Below, piece after piece: positions 2,118 through 38,403 of a stretch of DNA of 38,403 bases. The stretch is from a virus. The first letter of the stretch is position 1. Each line of letters opens with the position of its first letter. The position numbers were made by a program, and so were the translations under genes. Under the pieces are notes generated by a model. It was not told the DNA's origin and did no database searches. It saw only the letters and a list, made by a program, of their open reading frames with translations. The stretch lies in IMG/VR virus record IMGVR_UViG_3300035536_000005, one strand, 5' to 3'.

Positions 2118-3398
2118 TTAATGTATCAATCTCTTATAAACTCTAGGTAAACTATTAACTACATATCTGATTAAGTCCATAATATGGTCATTTTCCTTAA
2201 TTGGCTTATCCTCTCCTCTATCGCTAGCCTTCTCATCCCAACGATACGAATGAAACTCCTCTTTAACTTTCTCATTATGATTTAACACTACAAATTTATT
2301 AAGCGTAATCAAATTGCTAACTTTTTCTATACCTTCATTGACACTATTATTAGCTTTAGCGATTCGCTTAAATGCTGGAAACTCGTGCCTGTGCTGATAT
2401 AACTCAACTCGGAAACTTTTAGCACTGGGGTCAATAAATATCCACTTAGGATTGATATCATGCTTAGTTATAAAGTTTTGCAAGTCTTTTCTATACTGGC
2501 TGTTAGCCTTGTCAGTTCCCTCTCTACCGCTGTGATAGTAAGTGTTAAGTAAATACATCCTATTGTCACTCCCTATTCCTATATGCCCAAACGCTGTCGG
2601 ATTAGCCGCACCATAATCAATACCAATGAATTCCTGCACAATATCTACATTATTTGGTACTTTGTCAATTATATTATCATCATTGAAAGAAGGATAAACC
2701 AATCCCTCTGCAACTACCCATAATCCTCTAATATATCTATCATAATAAACACCAGAATACATACGCTTGTATCTGTCAATAATTTTTTGCGATAATGTTA
2801 AGTTATCAGCCATTGTAAAGTGTAAATGGTATATTCTTTTTTCTTCTTTCTTGTCAATCCACTCTTTCTTAAGAAAATGATAAGGTGAATCCGGATTACT
2901 ATTAAACCAATGACGGCTTCCTTCTACTGAACATCTAGCAACCATCTCATTCACAAAGTTTTCTGGAAACAATTCTACCTGGTCCGCAAAACTTCCAGCA
3001 GCTGTTAATCCCTGTAATGTATCTTTGCTGCTAATATTATTAGCTCCATATAAGTAGTAATAATTTGTGCCAATTTCAATGCGTGGTTCTTCAGTTGAGC
3101 GAATATGATTAAATTTTAAACCTTTAGCATTTAATATTTTCTTCATAGGATTGAGCACATTTTTTGTCAAAGCTCCCATTGACTTTCCCGCTATGATAAA
3201 GTTTTGATTATCAAAATTAGCAATGGACCAGTCAATAAACCCGCAAATCATCCCAACTGTCTTACCTGCTCTAATACTACCATCAGCTATAACTATATCC
3301 TTACCAGAATGCGGTGAATTATCCATCCACCAGCTAAGTAGCTTAACTTGCTTATCTGAAAAAGGTTGAAACTTAAATTGTGCTTTGTTATTTCTCAT
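2118..3398 (-). CDS. terL: Terminase large subunit
   Basis: 426 aa. Walker A GSIRAGKT lies near the N terminus. Size and position are typical of PBSX/Terminase_3-type large terminases. Confidence 0.85.
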   Translation of the reverse strand: MRNNKAQFKFQPFSDKQVKLLSWWMDNSPHSGKDIVIADGSIRAGKTVGMICGFIDWSIANFDNQNFIIAGKSMGALTKNVLNPMKKILNAKGLKFNHIRSTEEPRIEIGTNYYYLYGANNISSKDTLQGLTAAGSFADQVELFPENFVNEMVARCSVEGSRHWFNSNPDSPYHFLKKEWIDKKEEKRIYHLHFTMADNLTLSQKIIDRYKRMYSGVYYDRYIRGLWVVAEGLVYPSFNDDNIIDKVPNNVDIVQEFIGIDYGAANPTAFGHIGIGSDNRMYLLNTYYHSGREGTDKANSQYRKDLQNFITKHDINPKWIFIDPSAKSFRVELYQHRHEFPAFKRIAKANNSVNEGIEKVSNLITLNKFVVLNHNEKVKEEFHSYRWDEKASDRGEDKPIKENDHIMDLIRYVVNSLPRVYKRLIH

Positions 3399-3493
3399 AT
3401 TGCACCAACTTTATTAATTATCTTTATGAATACATTCAATCCATTTAATTGTAGAATTTTTGATTTTTCCTAATTTAGATAAATCAATTTTCA

Positions 3494-4012
3494 TTATTCA
3501 TCACCCTCCCATACTTCCTCACTTCTACCTCTAATCGCATCAATGTAAACATCTACATCTACACTATCTGGAGCTTCATCATTCTCAACTTGATATTTCA
3601 ACTTAAGCAGTTGAGTTTTCTTGCCTTGCACTCTCGTTAATGCTTCTTCAATATTAGAAGTGTTTTCAGCTTCAACAGATTGATTAATTCTCTGCATCAT
3701 CCGTCTTATCCTAATCTCGATTAGCTTAATATCATCATCAATTAAATCTATAACTTCATGTTTAACTTTTGGCAGCAAATTCTTTTCTTCATCTGTTAAA
3801 GTATCCATCCATATAGTTTCATATTCACCTGTGGATACAGCGTTTTTATTCTTCTTCATATTCTCTGGCTTAGGACCAGTTGAAGCACCACCGTGATATT
3901 TACATCTACCTTCGCCTAAGTGAGAAGTTCCATACCCGGCAACTAACTTACATTCTTCACCTGTGCTTTTAGCTTTAGCACCGCAAATCTTTCTATGAGC
4001 TTTGTTTCCCAT
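3494..4012 (-). CDS. terS: Putative terminase small subunit
   Basis: 172 aa, directly upstream of terL. It has an N-terminal Cys/His knuckle (CGAKAKSTGEECK...GRCKYHGG), an NKNAVSTGEY segment and a coiled-coil C terminus. The call rests on position and motif memory only. Confidence 0.5.
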   Translation of the reverse strand: MGNKAHRKICGAKAKSTGEECKLVAGYGTSHLGEGRCKYHGGASTGPKPENMKKNKNAVSTGEYETIWMDTLTDEEKNLLPKVKHEVIDLIDDDIKLIEIRIRRMMQRINQSVEAENTSNIEEALTRVQGKKTQLLKLKYQVENDEAPDSVDVDVYIDAIRGRSEEVWEGDE

Positions 4013-4305: not shown

Positions 4306-4500
4306 CTATAAATTTAAAAATATCCAATAAAATAATACAATATCTGATACTGCAACCAACCATATTATACACAATCCCACTAATTTTATACTAAAATCAA
4401 CACTTTTAAAATCCTTTAAAACTAAATATAATAAATGATTAGCTAAAATAAATATCATCAAATATATAGAATTAATAATCATATTAATTAAATTTTCCAT
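4306..4500 (-). CDS. Small membrane protein (64 aa, two hydrophobic helices)
   Basis: The track ORF was trimmed to MENLINMIINSIYLMIFILANHLLYLV..., where ATG 4500-4498 follows AGGAGGGG. It has two hydrophobic stretches. Confidence 0.6.
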   Translation of the reverse strand: MENLINMIINSIYLMIFILANHLLYLVLKDFKSVDFSIKLVGLCIIWLVAVSDIVLFYWIFLNL

Positions 4501-4526
4501 TCTACCCCTCCTATTATCGCATAGAA
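4498..4526 (-). repeat. Duplicated translation-initiation region, copy A: TTCTATGCGATAATAGGAGGGGTAGAATG
   Basis: See the partner copy at 4271-4299. Confidence 0.85.
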
Positions 4527-4550
4527 AAGGACACCACATCTGTGGCATCC
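4523..4550 (-). terminator. Candidate intrinsic terminator or attenuator
   Basis: The RNA GGAUGCCAC-AGAU-GUGGUGUCC forms a 9-bp stem with two G-U pairs, followed by UUUUCU. It lies immediately after the stop of ORF 4560..4862. Confidence 0.4.
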
Positions 4551-4559
4551 TAAGTAACA

Positions 4560-4862
4560 TTATATTTTTAAATTTAAATCCTCATTTAATTTAATAGCTT
4601 TAGCTATCTTTTCACCATTAATAGTTACTGAAATATTTAAATCTCTGTATTCTTGTTTTGCTTTGTATTTCCCAGCAAATTCAGCTATAATTTCAACTAC
4701 ATTTTCTTTTTCTCTAAAAGCTATAATTTGATATAAATATTTATTGCTTATATTTACCGCTTCGCCAAGATTATAATTGCCTTTATCAGTATAAATTTTA
4801 ATTTTATTCGGGCAATTAACATAATCTAAATTTGCAATATCATCTCTAATTATTTTTTGCAT
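4560..4862 (-). CDS. Hypothetical protein (100 aa)
   Basis: ORF track. Tightly packed in a co-directional operon. No motif recognised. Confidence 0.6.
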   Translation of the reverse strand: MQKIIRDDIANLDYVNCPNKIKIYTDKGNYNLGEAVNISNKYLYQIIAFREKENVVEIIAEFAGKYKAKQEYRDLNISVTINGEKIAKAIKLNEDLNLKI

Positions 4863-25388: not shown

Positions 25389-26267
25389 TTAGTAGCTTCT
25401 TGATAATTTTAGTCTAGGGTGCCAACCGCGAGTGTAGTACACACCCGCCGAACCACTCGCATTCAGGAGCGACACACCACCATAACCGCGAGACACGCGC
25501 TGGGCCAGATCGATATCAGAACTTTCTTGACACCAGCTGTAACTTCCGTTACCAAATTTGTTATGTGTTATCAAATCTCCATCTGAAAAATTAATATTCC
25601 AACTGTTAACTGTCGGTACATATGCTGGATAATTCCAGTTATTTGCCAATGCCTTTTCGTGTATCGGCAGCATTAATGCATTCCATTCGTTTGCCGGTCC
25701 AATAGAACCTCTGTCAGCATCATTATAGCTGTTAAGTGGGTCAGAAGCTCCGCCTTTAAGCAGCGCAACCTCATATCTTAAGCCATTTACTGAAACACTT
25801 GCATCCTGTCTGGTTGCTGTTAGTGCAGAACCTGATGAGCTCGTCAAATTATGATGTTCGGCTCCCGCTTCTCCGGCAAGTAAACCATCGCCATATACAG
25901 CCCCTTGTAAATATAAGTGGTCCCAGCTGATTGTGTGCCTGATTGGTTTTTGAGGGACCATATATATTTCACCCTGAAAAGCAAACTTGAGCCAATTAGT
26001 ATTTGAAAATTGGCTAGTTCCTTGGGTAACGCCGACCGCAGTTGCTAGAGCGTCGCCAGTTATGAAATCATTCGCCGGCACTATTCCAAAAAAACCTGCA
26101 TCCATGGTTCCAAAGCTCAATGTATCTGGATTGCTTATATCTGATGTTGCTACCTCCGATTTAATTTCAGAAAGTAGTTGTAATGCTTCATCTGACTCTT
26201 GTATTCTCATTCCTTTATTTCCATCTGCAAAACTTTTGATTAATTCACTTAAAGGCCATGTAGCCAT
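25389..26267 (-). CDS. Tail-module protein with a lectin-like (CLec/DUF1566-like) C terminus; putative receptor-binding protein. Compositionally foreign.
   Basis: 292 aa. It is visibly GC-richer than its neighbours. The C terminus YSWCQESS...AQRVSRGYGGVSLLNASGSAGVYYTRGWHPRL resembles the RVxRGG...GFR scaffold. Confidence 0.45.
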   Translation of the reverse strand: MATWPLSELIKSFADGNKGMRIQESDEALQLLSEIKSEVATSDISNPDTLSFGTMDAGFFGIVPANDFITGDALATAVGVTQGTSQFSNTNWLKFAFQGEIYMVPQKPIRHTISWDHLYLQGAVYGDGLLAGEAGAEHHNLTSSSGSALTATRQDASVSVNGLRYEVALLKGGASDPLNSYNDADRGSIGPANEWNALMLPIHEKALANNWNYPAYVPTVNSWNINFSDGDLITHNKFGNGSYSWCQESSDIDLAQRVSRGYGGVSLLNASGSAGVYYTRGWHPRLKLSRSY

Positions 26268-30928: not shown

Positions 30929-31339
30929 TTATCCCTTCTTCATTTCTTCTTTTATCCAACCTTCTATCTTTCCACTCATTGCTTTTGATGTAGTCTCAAG
31001 CCACTTGTTTTCTCTACCATTCCTGTAGTTTTTAGATACTTCGTGAGTTTCAACTGCATAAGGCGTGTTATATGAGATATAGAATATCGGCTTTTTGCGA
31101 AAATCAAATTTAAAATTATTTTTTGGCCATTGTTCATTTTCAGCTTGATTATACACAGTTTTTGGCATACCACTTAATCCATCTTGAGTTACAACTCCAC
31201 TTCGCTCAAGCGTTCCTGTATCGTGTGGTACTTTCTTATTAGCTTCTGTTAATATAGATTCTGCCGCACGCCAAGTAGCTCTACCTGCTTTTTCTAATTG
31301 TTCATCAACTACATCATCAAACCAATTAAACTTCGCCAT
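30929..31339 (-). CDS. HK97 gp10-like neck/tail-joining protein
   Basis: 136 aa. KVPHDTGTLERSG matches the vP-x-dTG-x-L-x-S motif of the HK97 gp10 family. Confidence 0.6.
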   Translation of the reverse strand: MAKFNWFDDVVDEQLEKAGRATWRAAESILTEANKKVPHDTGTLERSGVVTQDGLSGMPKTVYNQAENEQWPKNNFKFDFRKKPIFYISYNTPYAVETHEVSKNYRNGRENKWLETTSKAMSGKIEGWIKEEMKKG

Positions 31340-31347
31340 ATAATCAC

Positions 31348-31665
31348 CTACCTCAACATTATCTCTACATTTGATAAGTTGCCAGTTAGTGCATTGTCAT
31401 ATCTGTTGACTGCAATCACTTCTAATGGTTTGCTTGTCCATTCAAAGCTAACTTCTGATTGTTCTTTAGGTTTGATGTCAGCAGAAGTATGCAACTGTGA
31501 AGGTGATGTAATTTCATTTCCTTCCTCATCAAAGGTTATTTTTTTCTTATGCACAAAATAGCAGTCTATGTCATAAGTGTCGCCCCAAACAGGCCCATAA
31601 GCACCTTCGCCAAGATAAGGTTTAATAGTCGCTGTATGTGGTTGTGCTGATTTAGGTAACTTCAT
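31348..31665 (-). CDS. Head closure / head-tail adaptor protein
   Basis: 105 aa. Assigned by position in the connector module. Confidence 0.4.
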   Translation of the reverse strand: MKLPKSAQPHTATIKPYLGEGAYGPVWGDTYDIDCYFVHKKKITFDEEGNEITSPSQLHTSADIKPKEQSEVSFEWTSKPLEVIAVNRYDNALTGNLSNVEIMLR

Positions 31666-32015
31666 TGTAGACTCACACCTCTATACAGGTAACCTTCTAA
31701 CATTAATAATTGTCTTGCTCTGGGTGCTAACTCTGGAGGACCACCACCTGCATTTTGTCCTCTATTGCTCGCTGAAAAAGGACCAATACTTATTTCAGAG
31801 AAGAATTGTTGCGTATTAAACTCATCGAATTGACTCCACCATTCATACTGCCTCACAGTGGCTTTAGACGCTATTTCTCCGGCAGTTATCCTACCTAATG
31901 TGTAATAGTCTATCAAGTCGCTTGCTCTCTCTAATAAGCGTTCTACATCGTCTGGTAAGTTTGCTTCTGATACACCTAAATAATCAGCTAATTCTGTTAT
32001 CGTTGCATATGCCAT
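31662..32015 (-). CDS. gp6-like head-tail connector protein
   Basis: 117 aa. YATITELADYLGV...LPDDVERLLERASDLIDYY is typical of the gp6-like connector family. Confidence 0.6.
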   Translation of the reverse strand: MAYATITELADYLGVSEANLPDDVERLLERASDLIDYYTLGRITAGEIASKATVRQYEWWSQFDEFNTQQFFSEISIGPFSASNRGQNAGGGPPELAPRARQLLMLEGYLYRGVSLQ

Positions 32016-32057
32016 AATTTACACCTTCTTTCAAAATTAAAGTGTCGCATTATTACG

Positions 32058-32222
32058 CTATTCTTTTATTCTACTTACAGGAAAAACATTTATTTTCCCA
32101 GTTGCAACTCCGTCTTTCATTTTCCCAACTACAACTTCTTCACCTAAATAATCGTCATAATAAACATTTAGAACAATGTATTCTTGTAGCAAGCTACTTT
32201 TAATTACGTCTCCTTTTTTCAT
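32058..32222 (-). CDS. Hypothetical small protein (54 aa)
   Basis: Hand translation gives MKKGDVIKSSLLQEYIVLNVYYDDYLGEEVVVGKMKDGVATGKINVFPVSRIKE. It has an ATGA overlap with the upstream ORF. Confidence 0.4.
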   Translation of the reverse strand: MKKGDVIKSSLLQEYIVLNVYYDDYLGEEVVVGKMKDGVATGKINVFPVSRIKE

Positions 32223-32338
32223 TCTTCTATCTCCTCCACTAATTTTTGCAATCTAATATTTTCTTTTGTTAGTTTTTCAATAATTATTTTTTGTTTTTCT
32301 ATTAATTCTAAAAACTCCCAACCTATATCTTTTTTCAT
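32219..32338 (-). CDS. Hypothetical small coiled-coil protein (39 aa)
   Basis: Hand translation gives MKKDIGWEFLELIEKQKIIIEKLTKENIRLQKLVEEIEE. It has a TAATG overlap upstream. Confidence 0.35.
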   Translation of the reverse strand: MKKDIGWEFLELIEKQKIIIEKLTKENIRLQKLVEEIEE

Positions 32339-32556
32339 TAAATCATCATATCCATATTTTCATCTTCAGTTATTTCTATTTCTCTTACTTCTGATTTTAC
32401 AATTATTTCATTCTCATTTTCTATAATATTTGTAGTGAATACACCTTGATGAGTCTGGTCAAATTCATGATTTGTGTACTCTACAGGTTTAGCATTTTTG
32501 TGATTTTTGTTTACAATTTTAAGTTTCTCGTTTTCTATTATTCCGTATTTTTGCAT
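32338..32556 (-). CDS. Hypothetical protein (72 aa)
   Basis: ORF track. RBS is AAAGGTGGTGAG. Confidence 0.5.
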   Translation of the reverse strand: MQKYGIIENEKLKIVNKNHKNAKPVEYTNHEFDQTHQGVFTTNIIENENEIIVKSEVREIEITEDENMDMMI

Positions 32557-32661
32557 GTTTACTCACCACCTTTTTAGCTTCTTTCAAACTAACATAAGGT
32601 TTCATATGTTTTTGGTAGAAATTATAACTATCACTTCTTTTTATCCACCCCCAAACCCCCG

Positions 32662-34002
32662 TTAAGAGGCTTTTTTAAGAAGACGAGCGCCGATGTACAA
32701 GGCAGCACTAGCAGACGAATCGGCCAGGTACCAGCAAGAAGGACCACCATACGAGCCATAGAACCAGCCCCCACCAACGTGGGCAATTCTTTGACCGCTA
32801 TTTTGATAATAATAATCTCTATAATAAGACGACGAGCCTGTTGAAATTGCAAAAGACGCAAATGGCTTACCTTCATCAAATCCCATTTCTTCAACGTATC
32901 CATTTCCATTATGATTAACATAATTTAATTGTTCATATGGCGCGGAAAATACATTGCTGGCATAATCCTTTGCGTCTGAAGTAACCCATGCTTGCCAATC
33001 ATTAATATTAACGCCATCTACAAACTGCCATATATCTCCGTAAGGGCTTTCAATACCTCGATACATACAAGGGAACTTGCCATTTGTGTTGCTCACAGGG
33101 CTGCCTGAACTTGCTGCTATATCAGCTGAAAAACCGTTTTTCCACCCTGTATTATATATAACATCATCTATAGCTATATCAACAGGGTCGCCATCGAACA
33201 CTATTGAAGATTGACCAGCACTGGGAGTGTCTGCCTGTATGTTAGTTATTGTCCTTCCATAAAAAACACTGTTGTTGCCACGAGAAGAACCAACCGATAT
33301 TGTTTGTTTTACTCTATATTTATCAGCAACAGCGTTATCAACAACAATTCTATTAACTGATGTTTCTGATATTAATGCAGTATCTGATGTGCTATAATTA
33401 CCATCAAGAAATCCTCTCATTACTGACTGCATATCAAGTGTCGCAAATTCTATATACATTAGCGTCTTAATAACATCATAACCGTGTATATCTAATTGCT
33501 GATACCCACTGACACCATTTGCATTATTATTTTCTGTATAGTTTCTCATTTCTACAATATTTTCACTTACAAGAGGATATTTACCCGACTTGCTTTCCAT
33601 TCTATCTATTTCATCTTTTGTTGCCTTGTGCTTCCCGAAATCAAAATAAGGTAATTCTCTATCATTCTCAAAATCCCAAAAAACTTTTGGTAAATAAAAA
33701 CCTTCATGTTGAGTTTTTGAAACTTTCCAAGTTCTTTCATCAGCTGATTTTGTTTTTTTGATGTAGAATTTTGGTATCCTAACAAATTCATTGCCATAAC
33801 CATCAGTAACATCATGCATTTCTCCAAAAATAGGCATGTTATCAAAATCGTTTCTAACAATTTGGTCATCTACACCAACGCCAGCAATTCTACCTTTTGC
33901 TTGGTTTGTTCTTTCTAATGTAGAGGTAGCAGTTCTATCCCATTTGACACCCATTATAAGATGGTTTTCAAAACTATCTTTTTTTGCAAATCTTCTCCTC
34001 AT
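32662..34002 (-). CDS. C-type-lectin/FGE-sulfatase-fold protein with a DGR-style variable-region-like C terminus (head-module insertion)
   Basis: 446 aa. YRGIESPYGDIWQFVDG is followed by HVGGGWFYGSYGGPSCWYLADSSASAALYIGARLL. The last ~100 nt are ~60% GC, A-poor and dominated by NNY codons. Confidence 0.6.
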   Translation of the reverse strand: MRRRFAKKDSFENHLIMGVKWDRTATSTLERTNQAKGRIAGVGVDDQIVRNDFDNMPIFGEMHDVTDGYGNEFVRIPKFYIKKTKSADERTWKVSKTQHEGFYLPKVFWDFENDRELPYFDFGKHKATKDEIDRMESKSGKYPLVSENIVEMRNYTENNNANGVSGYQQLDIHGYDVIKTLMYIEFATLDMQSVMRGFLDGNYSTSDTALISETSVNRIVVDNAVADKYRVKQTISVGSSRGNNSVFYGRTITNIQADTPSAGQSSIVFDGDPVDIAIDDVIYNTGWKNGFSADIAASSGSPVSNTNGKFPCMYRGIESPYGDIWQFVDGVNINDWQAWVTSDAKDYASNVFSAPYEQLNYVNHNGNGYVEEMGFDEGKPFASFAISTGSSSYYRDYYYQNSGQRIAHVGGGWFYGSYGGPSCWYLADSSASAALYIGARLLKKAS

Positions 34003-34328
34003 TATCTATTCACCACCGTCAACGTAGTATCAGCTACAAAATATATACTCACACTATCTACAGTATAGCTTGCCATTAATCCTTCTCCTAGTGGTTCGCC
34101 AGTTGTAGCTGTAGCTGGGTTACCATCTGTTCTAACCCTTGCATAACCAGATTCAATATATACTTCAATTTCATTTGCACCAGCTTCTTTATTATAAGTT
34201 TTTTCAGTTTCAGCAAGGTTATCTTCTTGTACTGATGATATTTCCCCTTTACTCCCCTTTTGCGACACATCAAATGTATTATTACTGGAATTGAAAACTC
34301 TTTGTATTACTTCTCCTACACTTGCCAT
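34002..34328 (-). CDS. Hypothetical head-module protein (108 aa), translationally coupled to the lectin-fold gene
   Basis: ORF track. It has an ATGA overlap with 32662..34002. Confidence 0.55.
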   Translation of the reverse strand: MASVGEVIQRVFNSSNNTFDVSQKGSKGEISSVQEDNLAETEKTYNKEAGANEIEVYIESGYARVRTDGNPATATTGEPLGEGLMASYTVDSVSIYFVADTTLTVVNR

Positions 34329-34556
34329 TTATACCACCTTCTCAATTTTAGCAATTAATTCATCTTTATTTAATTTGTAATAACCTGTTAATTCTTCTTC
34401 TTTAGCAATTTCTCTCAATTCATCAACAGTTTTATCTGCCAATTCTTCTTTCTCTTCAACTTCCTCTACAATTTCATATCCTTGCTGTTTGAATTTGGTG
34501 TCAAAGGCACGCTCTGACACGTGCCGAGTAACACCACCTCTTTTAATTCTCATCAA
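34329..34556 (-). CDS. Protein with a Rho-N/SAP-like domain (75 aa)
   Basis: KTVDELREIAKEEELTGYYKLNKDELIAKIE matches the Rho N-terminal/SAP-like helix-extension-helix motif. Confidence 0.55.
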   Translation of the reverse strand: MMRIKRGGVTRHVSERAFDTKFKQQGYEIVEEVEEKEELADKTVDELREIAKEEELTGYYKLNKDELIAKIEKVV

Positions 34557-34567
34557 TTATCAACCTC

Positions 34568-35461
34568 CTATGCTATAGCAGTAGCTTTTGTGTGCGCATA
34601 GATTCCAACAGTCTTGTTATCTGGAATAAAAATATCGTGATATACTCTAGACTGCATTAACCATCCATCTGTTTTTTGGTTAGTATCTGGGTCAAATACT
34701 TTAAGTTGTCTTTGCTTCACAATTGGAAGTACAGCTGCATCGTGCACTAACAGGAAGTTAAGTTCATAATCTGTTCCACCAGTAGTTGCAGAATAACCAA
34801 ATGTGCTAGAACCATCATTAAGAGTAATTCCAGTGTAAAATCTACCTTGAGGTACTTTGACTATTGGGATATTATCATAAGTATCAAATGTTCTGTCGCC
34901 AATATCCATTACATCTCTCTGGAATAAGTCAGAGTTGCGGACATCAGAATATATCTGTGGTGTCATGAATAGACGCATACCTTCTTTGTTGACTTCATTA
35001 TCCTCAAGTTCAACAATAGCAGCATCAATAGCTTCTACTGCATTAGTTTTATCTAAATCAGCATTAACAGTTGTCCCTGCATTAGAAGCAATTTGAGCAT
35101 ATCTGTAAGCGTCTAACTCTGGCACAACTTTTTGTTTAGAAAATTGACTAGCAGTAAATGTAAATACGCTATCTAATGCTTCTAAATTATCCTGTCTATC
35201 AATTGTGAACTGAACACCTCTGTCTTGTGTCAATGTGTGAGTTTCCCAATTAAAGTTAACAGAACCTGTAGGATAACCTGTTGCTCTATCATAGTCACCT
35301 AATCCGTCTAATGCAATTTTTGGAAGCAATACTTCACCTGCATTTTGCCCATCTCTAACTAATTCCTGTGGAATACTTAATACATCGGAAGTTAATCCTC
35401 TTTTGTAAACCTCGTCTAAATAAGTTGTATATTTTTTTGCTAGTGCAATACTATTAGCCAT
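34568..35461 (-). CDS. Major capsid protein
   Basis: 297 aa. It lies directly downstream of the scaffolding gene with a strong RBS. Assigned by size and position. Confidence 0.75.
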   Translation of the reverse strand: MANSIALAKKYTTYLDEVYKRGLTSDVLSIPQELVRDGQNAGEVLLPKIALDGLGDYDRATGYPTGSVNFNWETHTLTQDRGVQFTIDRQDNLEALDSVFTFTASQFSKQKVVPELDAYRYAQIASNAGTTVNADLDKTNAVEAIDAAIVELEDNEVNKEGMRLFMTPQIYSDVRNSDLFQRDVMDIGDRTFDTYDNIPIVKVPQGRFYTGITLNDGSSTFGYSATTGGTDYELNFLLVHDAAVLPIVKQRQLKVFDPDTNQKTDGWLMQSRVYHDIFIPDNKTVGIYAHTKATAIA

Positions 35462-35488
35462 TTAAAATCTCTCCTTTATAATTTTTAA

Positions 35489-36061
35489 TTAAAATGTAAA
35501 TTTATCAGCCATTCTCTTGGCCCAATCTTCGTTGCTATCATTACCTGTGTCATCATCGCCTGTGTTAAAATCTCCAGCTGTTTTACTGCTATTACTATTC
35601 CTTTTTTCAAAGAAATAGTCTTTTTCTTCCTTCATATTTGCAATTAAATCATCAACTCCAACTACATTGCCTTCATCGTCAATTTCCAAGCTATCGATGT
35701 CTGCGACTTGCACAAAATCATTCAACGCTTTCTTGTTAACATTTTCAGCTAATGCAGCTTCTTTAACTGCAAATTCTTTTTGTTTTCTAACTGACTTTTG
35801 ACTAATCTCATCAATTTTGCTCTCATATTCTTTTTTTAATTCTTCCGGGTCTTCCATTTCAGCCAGCTTATCTTTTAGCTTCTCTAATTCATGCTTATAT
35901 TCATTCTTCTCTTCAATAACCTGCTGAAATCTGTCATAAGGGATACTATTATCTACTTCTTTTTGTTGAGTTTTATCTTCCTTTTCTGTTTTATCGACTT
36001 CTTCAGCTGTCGCATTCTCAACATTTTCTTTTTGCTCTACTTTTTCTTTTTCATCAGTCAT
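35489..36061 (-). CDS. Scaffolding protein
   Basis: 190 aa, highly acidic and helical. It lies between the Mu-F-like gene and the capsid gene. Confidence 0.7.
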   Translation of the reverse strand: MTDEKEKVEQKENVENATAEEVDKTEKEDKTQQKEVDNSIPYDRFQQVIEEKNEYKHELEKLKDKLAEMEDPEELKKEYESKIDEISQKSVRKQKEFAVKEAALAENVNKKALNDFVQVADIDSLEIDDEGNVVGVDDLIANMKEEKDYFFEKRNSNSSKTAGDFNTGDDDTGNDSNEDWAKRMADKFTF

Positions 36062-37495: not shown

Positions 37496-38403
37496 TCACA
37501 CCAAATCGTCTGGTTCATTGACTATCATTCCATTTTCCTGCATAATTTTATTTACTTCATTTTCTACTTGCTTTTCATTCCATTGTGGATTTAACTTCCT
37601 AACAACCGTATCAATACTCATAGCTTTAGCCTGTGTTAATTTATTAATTGCATCAGCCTGCTGCATCGGGTCGGTCTGCACACTATCTTGAATATTAACC
37701 TGTACTTTGTAATCACCATTATTGCTACCAAACACATAATTGTCAACTTGTAGCATCCAATAGAACATATCCTCTAATGTCGAAGTCCAGTATTTAGCTT
37801 TTTTAGCAGATGTTTTAAATGATTTGCTTTGCTGCTGTTTAATTTCAGTAGCTGTCGCGTTACTTGTGCTATCGCCTAATCCAAAACTGGCAGGTGAATA
37901 TCCAGCTCCACTATACGCTTGCTTCATCAATTCCATTGCTGTATCATAATGCTGTTGTGCTCTAATATCAAATTGTACATTGTCAATAGAGTTATTATCA
38001 TCACCGGCTGGTCCTTGATTAAGTGCAACAAATACTTCTTTGTCAATATCATGATATAAATTGCCATCATTGTCAGTTTCCAGCATATATTCTGGCACAA
38101 TTATTCTTCCTCTTGCTATGCGTAAATCTCTCACCCAATTAGTGTAAGTTTCATCGATAGCATCCATTAATCCAATTATGCCTTGTAAATCACTCTCACC
38201 TAAAGGAGAACCACGCCACAGTCTATTAGGGCGTTTATTAGGAACATACCAGGCAAGTATGCTGTCTAAACCATGCTCAATAACTTCTTCCATTCCTGCT
38301 GTACTCTCGTGACTCTCAAGTGATACCTTTTTCCCTAGCTTATTAGTTGTACCTTTATATAACTCATTGAATATAATGCCTTTTCTGCGTGTTTCAACTA
38401 GAC
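37496..38403 (-). CDS. Portal protein, C-terminal part. The frame stays open to the window end and continues from bases 128-698.
   Basis: The track ORF 37496..38293 begins at an internal Met. The frame stays open through 38403, and the sequence is the in-frame continuation of the ORF starting at 698. Confidence 0.8.
   Translation of the reverse strand, partial: LVETRRKGIIFNELYKGTTNKLGKKVSLESHESTAGMEEVIEHGLDSILAWYVPNKRPNRLWRGSPLGESDLQGIIGLMDAIDETYTNWVRDLRIARGRIIVPEYMLETDNDGNLYHDIDKEVFVALNQGPAGDDNNSIDNVQFDIRAQQHYDTAMELMKQAYSGAGYSPASFGLGDSTSNATATEIKQQQSKSFKTSAKKAKYWTSTLEDMFYWMLQVDNYVFGSNNGDYKVQVNIQDSVQTDPMQQADAINKLTQAKAMSIDTVVRKLNPQWNEKQVENEVNKIMQENGMIVNEPDDLV
38277..38403. repeat. Terminal direct repeat, copy 2. 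Identical to 1-127.
   Basis: See the copy at 1-127. Confidence 0.95.

Follow-up and report, generated by a model that had tools for sequence, protein, structure and literature searches.

The IMG/VR virus record IMGVR_UViG_3300035536_000005 comprises 38,403 nucleotides (nt), and this whole stretch was analyzed as the window. On its minus strand the window carries an intact open reading frame (ORF) for a 446-amino-acid (aa) virion protein, the 3′ end of which had been read in an initial annotation, made from the sequence alone, as the variable region of a diversity-generating retroelement (DGR). The analysis reported here concerns that gene end, a putative variable repeat (VR), and what lies directly after it. 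In a DGR, a reverse transcriptase (RT) copies the RNA of a template repeat (TR) with errors at adenines, and the cDNA then replaces the VR. The following features were identified at the locus, with the line of evidence in parentheses.

32662-34002, minus strand: target gene, intact ORF for the 446-aa virion protein, predicted C-type-lectin/formylglycine-generating enzyme (FGE)-like fold (phrog_5302, AlphaFold2 and Foldseek)
32676-32784, minus strand: VR, 109 nt, which appears now frozen (TR comparisons and hypervariability in the protein cluster)
32645-32661, minus strand: G-rich element CGGGGGTTTGGGGGTGG, 5′ half of the post-VR hairpin region, 3′ arm missing (comparison with relative L006)
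32645-32654, minus strand: deletion junction within the microhomology TTGGGGGTGG (three-way alignment)
32519-32654, minus strand: RT stump, last ~45 codons and stop codon, no start codon and no catalytic motifs (tblastn and nucleotide alignment)
32338-32556, minus strand: 72-aa ORF that in intact relatives overlaps the RT 3′ end and follows the RT (gene order)

Composition of the gene end

The coding strand at positions 32683-32784 contains 8 A, 27 C, 34 G, and 33 T, i.e., 61/102 G+C, in a window with an overall G+C content of 33.6%. Twenty-seven of its 34 codons are NNY, ending in a pyrimidine, and none is NNA; the encoded peptide is AHVGGGWFYGSYGGPSCWYLADSSASAALYIGAR. The G+C, A, and codon counts agree with those given in the initial annotation. 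On the same strand, 102-nt segments contain a mean of 39.2 A (standard deviation, 6.1), and only 10 of 38,302 have 8 A or fewer. All 10 overlap 32683-32784, which is itself the lowest-A 102-nt stretch genome-wide. Encoded with the codon usage of this genome, that peptide would carry an expected 19.4 A and 50 G+C rather than the 8 A and 61 G+C observed, and an A-ending synonym exists for 24 of the 34 codons, with a probability of 7e-6 that none would be used. An A-poor, NNY-rich, and G+C-rich VR in a genome of 34% G+C would be accounted for by the biology of DGRs, because the adenines of a TR would be confined to the codons that are meant to vary.

Template repeats and intact cassettes in relatives

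Intact cassettes were found in relatives of the window. In L002, whose protein is 65% identical to the 446-aa protein, a GC-rich hairpin, a TR, and an RVT_1 RT directly follow the gene, and the TR differs from the VR of the same genome at 25 adenine sites and at no other site. In L006, whose protein is 93% identical, the gene is followed by a hairpin, a TR starting at position 2405, and a 353-aa RT at 2644-3705. A GC-rich hairpin after the VR is present in the intact relatives L002, L006, and L015, and the order target-TR-RT recurs in Bacillus benzoevorans, Salirhabdus, Alkalihalobacillus, Levilactobacillus, and other Bacillota genomes. The window VR and the TRs of AT-rich relatives are alike in composition. 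No Avd was found in the intact relatives of this cassette type (cassette 1), L002 and L006 included. The absence of Avd from the window, which had been listed among the missing DGR parts, therefore stands as an observation but has no diagnostic meaning, as the intact cassette-1 relatives also lack it (Architecture A).

In the interval between TR and RT (L002, 4950-5060; L006, 2530-2640; L015, 2470-2580), the motif CACCGCTTGGTGAAAAT.AA.CCG.A.AGAGCAGGGTTTAGTAG is conserved in both AT-rich and GC-rich relatives. It is probably a spacer element of the DGR RNA, and it is absent from the window.

Aligned to the TR of L006, the window VR has 14 mismatches at TR adenines and 5 elsewhere. Against the TR of L022, there are 12 adenine-site mismatches and 3 others, and all 3 lie within a patch of the L022 TR that has been overwritten. 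A reconstructed TR, consisting of the L022 TR with a 4-nt patch restored from L006, differs from the window VR at 15 adenine sites and at no other site over 109 nt.

Variation among the relatives is focused on the same segment. The C terminus of the family reads IAxVGGxWxxGSxAGxSxWxLxxSSxxAxVxxGGRLLKKPL, an invariant scaffold broken by hypervariable positions. Within a cluster of proteins sharing 90% identity, residues 284 to 343 are invariant and ~13 positions in residues 408 to 436 vary in nearly every member; the same VR-focused hypervariability was seen in the wider family. The initial annotation had proposed a look at variation between relatives, and in the cluster this variation is concentrated at those ~13 VR codons. 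Together with the TRs of relatives and the adenine-site mismatches, it bears out the assignment of the gene end to a DGR variable region. In the VR of one relative, L013 (5225-5235), the family-invariant Gly codon of the VGG motif reads GAT (VDG), a G-to-A change where the TR has no adenine; it may mark the onset of scaffold decay in an orphan VR, or it may be a sequencing error.

The patch might instead have nothing to do with a DGR and reflect either a Gly/Ser/Trp-rich peptide or import by recombination from a G+C-richer phage. Such residues do have G+C-rich codons, as is evident from the 50/102 G+C expected under genome codon usage. However, adenine is avoided at synonymous sites as well (P = 7e-6), the TRs of AT-rich relatives share the composition, and the mismatches of the VR to these TRs fall at adenine sites. 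The patch is also hypervariable among relatives, not identically shared. This explanation is hardly credible and is already contradicted by the TR/VR pairs in relatives.

Deletion junction and RT stump

The stop codon of the target gene (32664-32662) is followed by CGGGGGTTTGGGGGTGG. The post-VR hairpin of L006, CGGGGGTTTGGGGGTGGCCAACCCCCA, folds at -8.6 kcal/mol, compared with -0.9 kcal/mol for the window equivalent, which is no better than shuffled sequences. A GC-rich element had been predicted to follow the stop codon, and what is found there is the surviving 5′ arm of the hairpin, but the 3′ arm is deleted and the element no longer folds. In the prototype DGR, that of Bordetella phage BPP-1, efficient homing depends on the post-VR hairpin, and disruption of its stem cut tropism switching >1000-fold (PMC3240598).

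Directly after this half hairpin lies the end of an RT gene. A tblastn search of the window with the L006 RT matched only RT residues 306 to 353, at 32665-32522 on the minus strand (E value, 2e-23; 92% identity), and the L002 RT likewise matched only 32665-32522 on that strand, from RT residue 308 (E value, 3e-15). From GGATAAAAAG to the RT stop codon the window is identical to L006 at the nucleotide level, and the sole difference between the stump and L006 is one base of the junction repeat (G in the window, T in L006). The RT frame of the stump retains only a 28-aa ORF, and no match to Pfam RVT_1 was obtained for the stump. The earlier statement that the genome has no RT thus holds for a full-length RT, but an RT stump is present at 32654-32519.

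A three-way alignment of the window with the VR end and the RT end of L002 located the point at which the VR end is joined to the RT end, inside a motif shared by both. The junction is a 10-nt imperfect direct repeat, TTGGGG[G/T]TGG. L006 carries two copies of it: TTGGGGGTGG at position 2345, 8 nt past the stop codon, and TTGGGGTTGG at position 3570, at RT codon ~309. Relative to L006, the window lacks 1,225 bp; with this segment went the hairpin's 3′ arm (CCAACCCCC), the TR, the conserved spacer that follows it, and the RT gene from codon 1 to codon ~309, with every catalytic motif. The 72-aa ORF downstream is arranged in the same way in L006 (RT at 2644-3705, ORF at 3668-3886) and in the deletion carriers.

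A missing cassette could also be produced by assembly, through collapsed VR/TR repeats or a chimeric join, with the real phage being intact. VR and TR are ~85% identical and about 200 bp apart, and such repeats can mislead assemblers. The join, however, is not VR to TR, since the 10-nt microhomology lies outside both repeats, and the window's junction is identical across independent assemblies from JGI, Logan, and ENA. Different and equally clean junctions are found in other relatives, so that an artefact can be discounted almost entirely. An exact search for the junction in IMG/VR and the JGI metagenomes returned one contig only; the members of the protein cluster were more informative.

The window carries an exact 127-nt terminal direct repeat (1-127 and 38277-38403), of the type left by assemblers on circular contigs, and the genome is therefore taken as closed. 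In this closed genome, an adenine-tolerant scan of both strands for a TR recovered only the VR itself, in line with the earlier observation that no second copy of the segment exists, and the next best segment had at least 9 non-adenine mismatches per 60 nt. No further RT and no Avd were detected in it by tblastn, for which the queries were two RTs of cassette 1, one of cassette 2, and one Avd. Among the ten largest other ORFs, Pfam searches identified no RT; they identified a methylase, a large terminase, DnaB, a replisome organizer, minor capsid protein 2, and a portal. Of the three features of an autonomous DGR, namely, an RT on the replicon, a TR on the replicon, and a hairpin after the VR, the window has none.

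Two observations were made on the same genome. Its terminal repeat makes the SPP1-type portal gene look split, with the N-terminal part in 1-698 and the C-terminal part at 37496-38293. An N6/N4 DNA methyltransferase gene (PF01555; E value, 7e-42) lies at 699-2105 on the minus strand, between the large terminase gene (2118-3398) and the portal gene.

Taken as a whole, positions 32676-32784 are very probably the VR of a DGR that is no longer in the genome, a fossil target left by the 1,225-bp deletion. A fossil is favored because the RT stump abuts the VR at a microhomology junction, the hairpin is destroyed, and the VR is invariant across samples, as described below. The ancestor would have carried the target gene, a GC-rich hairpin, a TR, the RNA spacer, and an RT, with no Avd, and adenine errors of that RT would have rewritten ~13 codons in the ligand-binding face of the C-type-lectin-fold virion protein. 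A deletion then occurred between the two 10-nt imperfect repeat copies, TTGGGGGTGG after the stop codon and TTGGGGTTGG at RT codon ~309, presumably by replication slippage or microhomology-mediated joining. It left behind an intact target gene, whose VR sequence is fixed, and 136 nt of RT stump. The 446-aa protein is presumably still an adhesin or receptor-binding protein, with its specificity locked.

Stasis of the VR and recurrent decay among relatives

Three loci taken from contigs of three other samples (L018, L019, and L020) have 0 mismatches to the window over their full lengths of 7.3, 4.6, and 1.6 kb. A locus from a fourth sample (L023) has 46 nt differences that are clustered in the gene body, with 0 in the VR, the junction, and 1.5 kb downstream. 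The window VR is therefore identical in L018, L019, L020, and L023, i.e., in at least four samples, and this stasis across samples is the opposite of the pattern of an active DGR.

Among close relatives of the window, only L006 has an intact cassette. The others carry deletions of several kinds.

L007/L008 and probably L001: the window's junction
L009/L010/L013: a deletion at that same site, but differing in a single base (GGGGTTGG)
L005/L014: a deletion at GGTGGT microhomology that runs from within the TR as far as the end of the RT
L021/L022: loss of RT codons ~28 to ~313 at AAAAAGAAG, with the hairpin and the TR retained

At least three inactivating deletions besides that of the window are thus represented (L009/L013, L005/L014, and L021/L022). 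Three alleles of the RT stump, those of the window, L007, and L009, differ mostly by changes that leave the RT reading unaltered (L009, 8 synonymous and 2 nonsynonymous; L007, 3 synonymous). This bias suggests that until recently the RTs were functional and under selection and that one shared hotspot was the site of independent losses, although the numbers are small. L009 and L013 are identical over 500 nt downstream, including the junction, yet differ by 13% in the gene body, and junctions and VRs appear to be reshuffled among co-circulating phages by recombination. Because such mosaics confound pairwise identities, these identities do not separate a single deletion from recurrent ones.

In the distant relative L031 (Scopulibacillus darangshiensis; 4399-4849), the TR is kept, with 2 non-adenine and 14 adenine-site mismatches, and tblastn matched RT residues 294 to 351 only. 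L031 may represent another independent RT truncation, again sparing the C-terminal ~58 codons.

TRs of RT-deleted relatives have lost adenines. The TR stump of L005 (4198-4300) reads GGG GGC TGG TAC ATT, where L006 has GGG AAC TGG AAC AAT. The TRs of L021 (1329-1437) and L022 (1015-1123) share the patch GCC CTG ACC TAT, which equals the VR of L022. This loss of adenines resembles the outcome of VR-to-TR gene conversion or of homing into the TR.

Several points weigh against a fossil. The TR that yields 15 adenine-site mismatches and 0 others is a reconstruction that corresponds to no observed sequence. Recombination, as seen between L009 and L013, is rampant, to the extent that the order of events is not readable from these data. 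The stasis of the VR is a contig-level observation, and low-frequency VR variants could be present in the source samples. Several deletion carriers have different VRs. Finally, the pair L021 and L022 has one RT-internal deletion in common, and nearly all of their differences lie in the VR, which makes diversification after RT loss possible: from -618 to +495 relative to the target stop codons (1261 in L021 and 947 in L022), there are 17 VR differences and only two at other sites, and on either side of the VR the two loci agree completely over about 490 nt.

The last two points are what would be expected if the VR were still being rewritten in trans, with TR RNA and RT from a co-infecting relative that has the cassette or from a host or prophage DGR. 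Intact and deleted relatives do coexist in public metagenomes, DGR components work when supplied from a plasmid (PMC3240598), and the VR of L021 is not templatable by its own, partly overwritten TR, so that this VR arose either by recombination import or by homing from a foreign TR. The window itself, however, has no full RT and no TR on its replicon, it lacks the 3′ arm of the post-VR hairpin that is needed for efficient homing (PMC3240598), and its VR is the same in at least four samples and in the recombinant relative L023. The same junction with a different VR is explained by recombination (L009 versus L013) and by independent deletions on different RT alleles. Rewriting of the window VR in trans is accordingly quite improbable. 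For the clade as a whole, a co-infecting relative could provide the DGR that rewrites RT-less and sometimes TR-less VRs, the deletion mutants being "cheaters" that keep the benefit. This is only slightly less improbable, and its best hint, of a shared population-level diversifier, is the L021/L022 pair, because the two VRs differ despite the shared deletion. Trans rewriting of the window VR would additionally need homing without the post-VR hairpin.

The initial annotation had left three options for the locus. Decay to a fossil fits the data; service in trans is unlikely for this locus, and a diversification route not yet described is not needed.

Target protein and neighboring genes

The 446-aa protein matches phrog_5302 ("tail protein"; E value, 6e-44) and has more than 1,190 homologues. 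A first AlphaFold2 model, built from 38 sequences, had predicted local distance difference test (pLDDT) scores below 50 over residues 287 to 435 and was replaced by a model built from 121 sequences, which reached a pLDDT of 85.9 and a predicted template modeling (pTM) score of 0.88, with a pLDDT of 60 to 70 over the VR. The lectin fold claimed earlier was upheld by the Foldseek search that had been proposed for it. The only significant matches in PDB were the three chains of TaqVP (5VF4), with E values of 5e-9 to 2e-8, a probability of 1.00, template modeling (TM) scores of 0.43 to 0.52, and sequence identities of 11 to 12%. In BFVD, the best matches of the model were phage "tail collar fiber" proteins (TM score up to 0.89), and SUMF-like and TvpA-like proteins were also among the matches. 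A Pfam scan of the protein gave no family at an E value of ≤0.1, FGE-sulfatase (PF03781) included, and a profile search of PDB sequences returned nothing relevant and no solved C-type-lectin-fold variable protein. The C-type-lectin fold of the modeled protein is therefore supported at the level of the fold only.

Two neighboring genes of the head module frame the target gene.

34568-35461, minus strand: major head protein (phrog_422; E value, 5e-80)
31662-32015, minus strand: head-tail adaptor (phrog_541; E value, 4e-18)

In relatives, among them the one whose cassette is intact, the target gene likewise lies between the genes for the capsid and the adaptor. The location in the head module, described as atypical in the initial annotation, was thus recorded correctly but is not peculiar to this genome. 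Directly after the major head protein gene, at 34329-34556 on the minus strand, lies a gene for a 75-aa Rho_N-domain protein (PF07498; E value, 6e-10) that is also conserved in relatives. Megablast of positions 31000-36000 against GenBank phages gave no match, and tblastn against the same phages gave distant matches only.

A second orphan VR in the tail module

One other stretch of the genome is comparably G+C rich, with 63/102 G+C and 12 A, and it is the sole such stretch besides the first VR.

25410-25505, minus strand: second orphan VR (VR2), at the 3′ end of a gene for a 292-aa virion protein (25389-26267) (composition and relatives)

The gene lies downstream of the tape measure gene, and its relatives vary at interspersed positions of RVxRGxxGVSxLxAxxSAxxxYxRGWRPRLKL. 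An RT follows the homologous gene in the relatives L049 to L052 and L055. In L049 the complete order is a GAAG-loop hairpin, a gene for bAvd (PF22296), a TR, and an RVT_1 RT, and this RT is only 28% identical to the cassette-1 RT. Between VR and TR of L049 and L050 there are 0 to 2 non-adenine-site and 8 to 13 adenine-site mismatches, depending on the stretch compared. In the window, the stop codon of the 292-aa gene is only 36 nt away from the ORF that in L049 comes after the RT, and an adenine-tolerant scan of both strands and tblastn detected no remnant of an Avd, a TR, or an RT at this locus. On the basis of these sequence comparisons, the phage appears to carry two frozen VRs from two different DGR types, with no working RT.

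Implications and comparison with known systems

A literature search for DGR decay or orphan VRs found no direct account, and the large surveys start from the RT. The features described here provide a signature for a dead DGR: an A-poor, G+C-rich, and NNY-rich gene end, half of a hairpin, and a short RT stump. DGR finders that are anchored on the RT cannot report such loci and for this reason may underestimate past DGR activity and misannotate receptor-binding proteins that are frozen. The clade is a natural series in which it can be asked why phages give up targeted hypermutation, as it contains a single cassette that is still intact, inactivating deletions of at least four kinds, two distinct cassette types, and TRs in which VR-like sequence has replaced a part. 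Comparison along this series could reveal whether a binding specificity that proves successful becomes "locked in." Knowledge of the mechanism of DGRs is unchanged by these findings.

The locus shares several traits with the DGR of BPP-1 (mtd-avd-TR-brt): the VR is at the 3′ end of a gene for a C-type-lectin-fold virion protein, the differences between TR and VR are adenine specific, and a GC-rich hairpin follows the VR, here in the intact relatives. Unlike that system, cassette 1 of this lineage has no avd, and its target lies between the major head protein and the adaptor rather than with the tail fibers. Because the window has lost its TR, its RT, and one half of the hairpin, nothing can be diversified in cis.

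VRs with no adjacent RT or TR are also known as the remote targets of Treponema denticola (PMC5758913). There, however, an RT and a matching TR are present elsewhere in the genome, whereas the window has neither and has also lost the post-VR hairpin. With regard to the Avd-dependent DGRs (Architecture B), bAvd is absent from the window and from L002 and L006 but present in the second cassette type, that of L049 to L052, which the window lacks.

TaqVP of Thermus aquaticus (PDB 5VF4) is the best structural match and has the same C-type-lectin fold with a C-terminal VR; the phage protein additionally has a beta domain at its N terminus and a beta-rich insertion (about residues 200 to 285). In cassette organization, the closest counterpart is Architecture A1, a target-TR-RT order without an accessory gene that accounts for 29% of catalogued DGRs (75 of 372) in the survey of Wu et al. 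2018 (PMC5758913). The intact relatives show exactly that order, without Avd, HRDC, or MSL, while the window keeps only the target and the 136-nt RT stump. The locus is thus a decayed member of a known system and not a new route of diversification.

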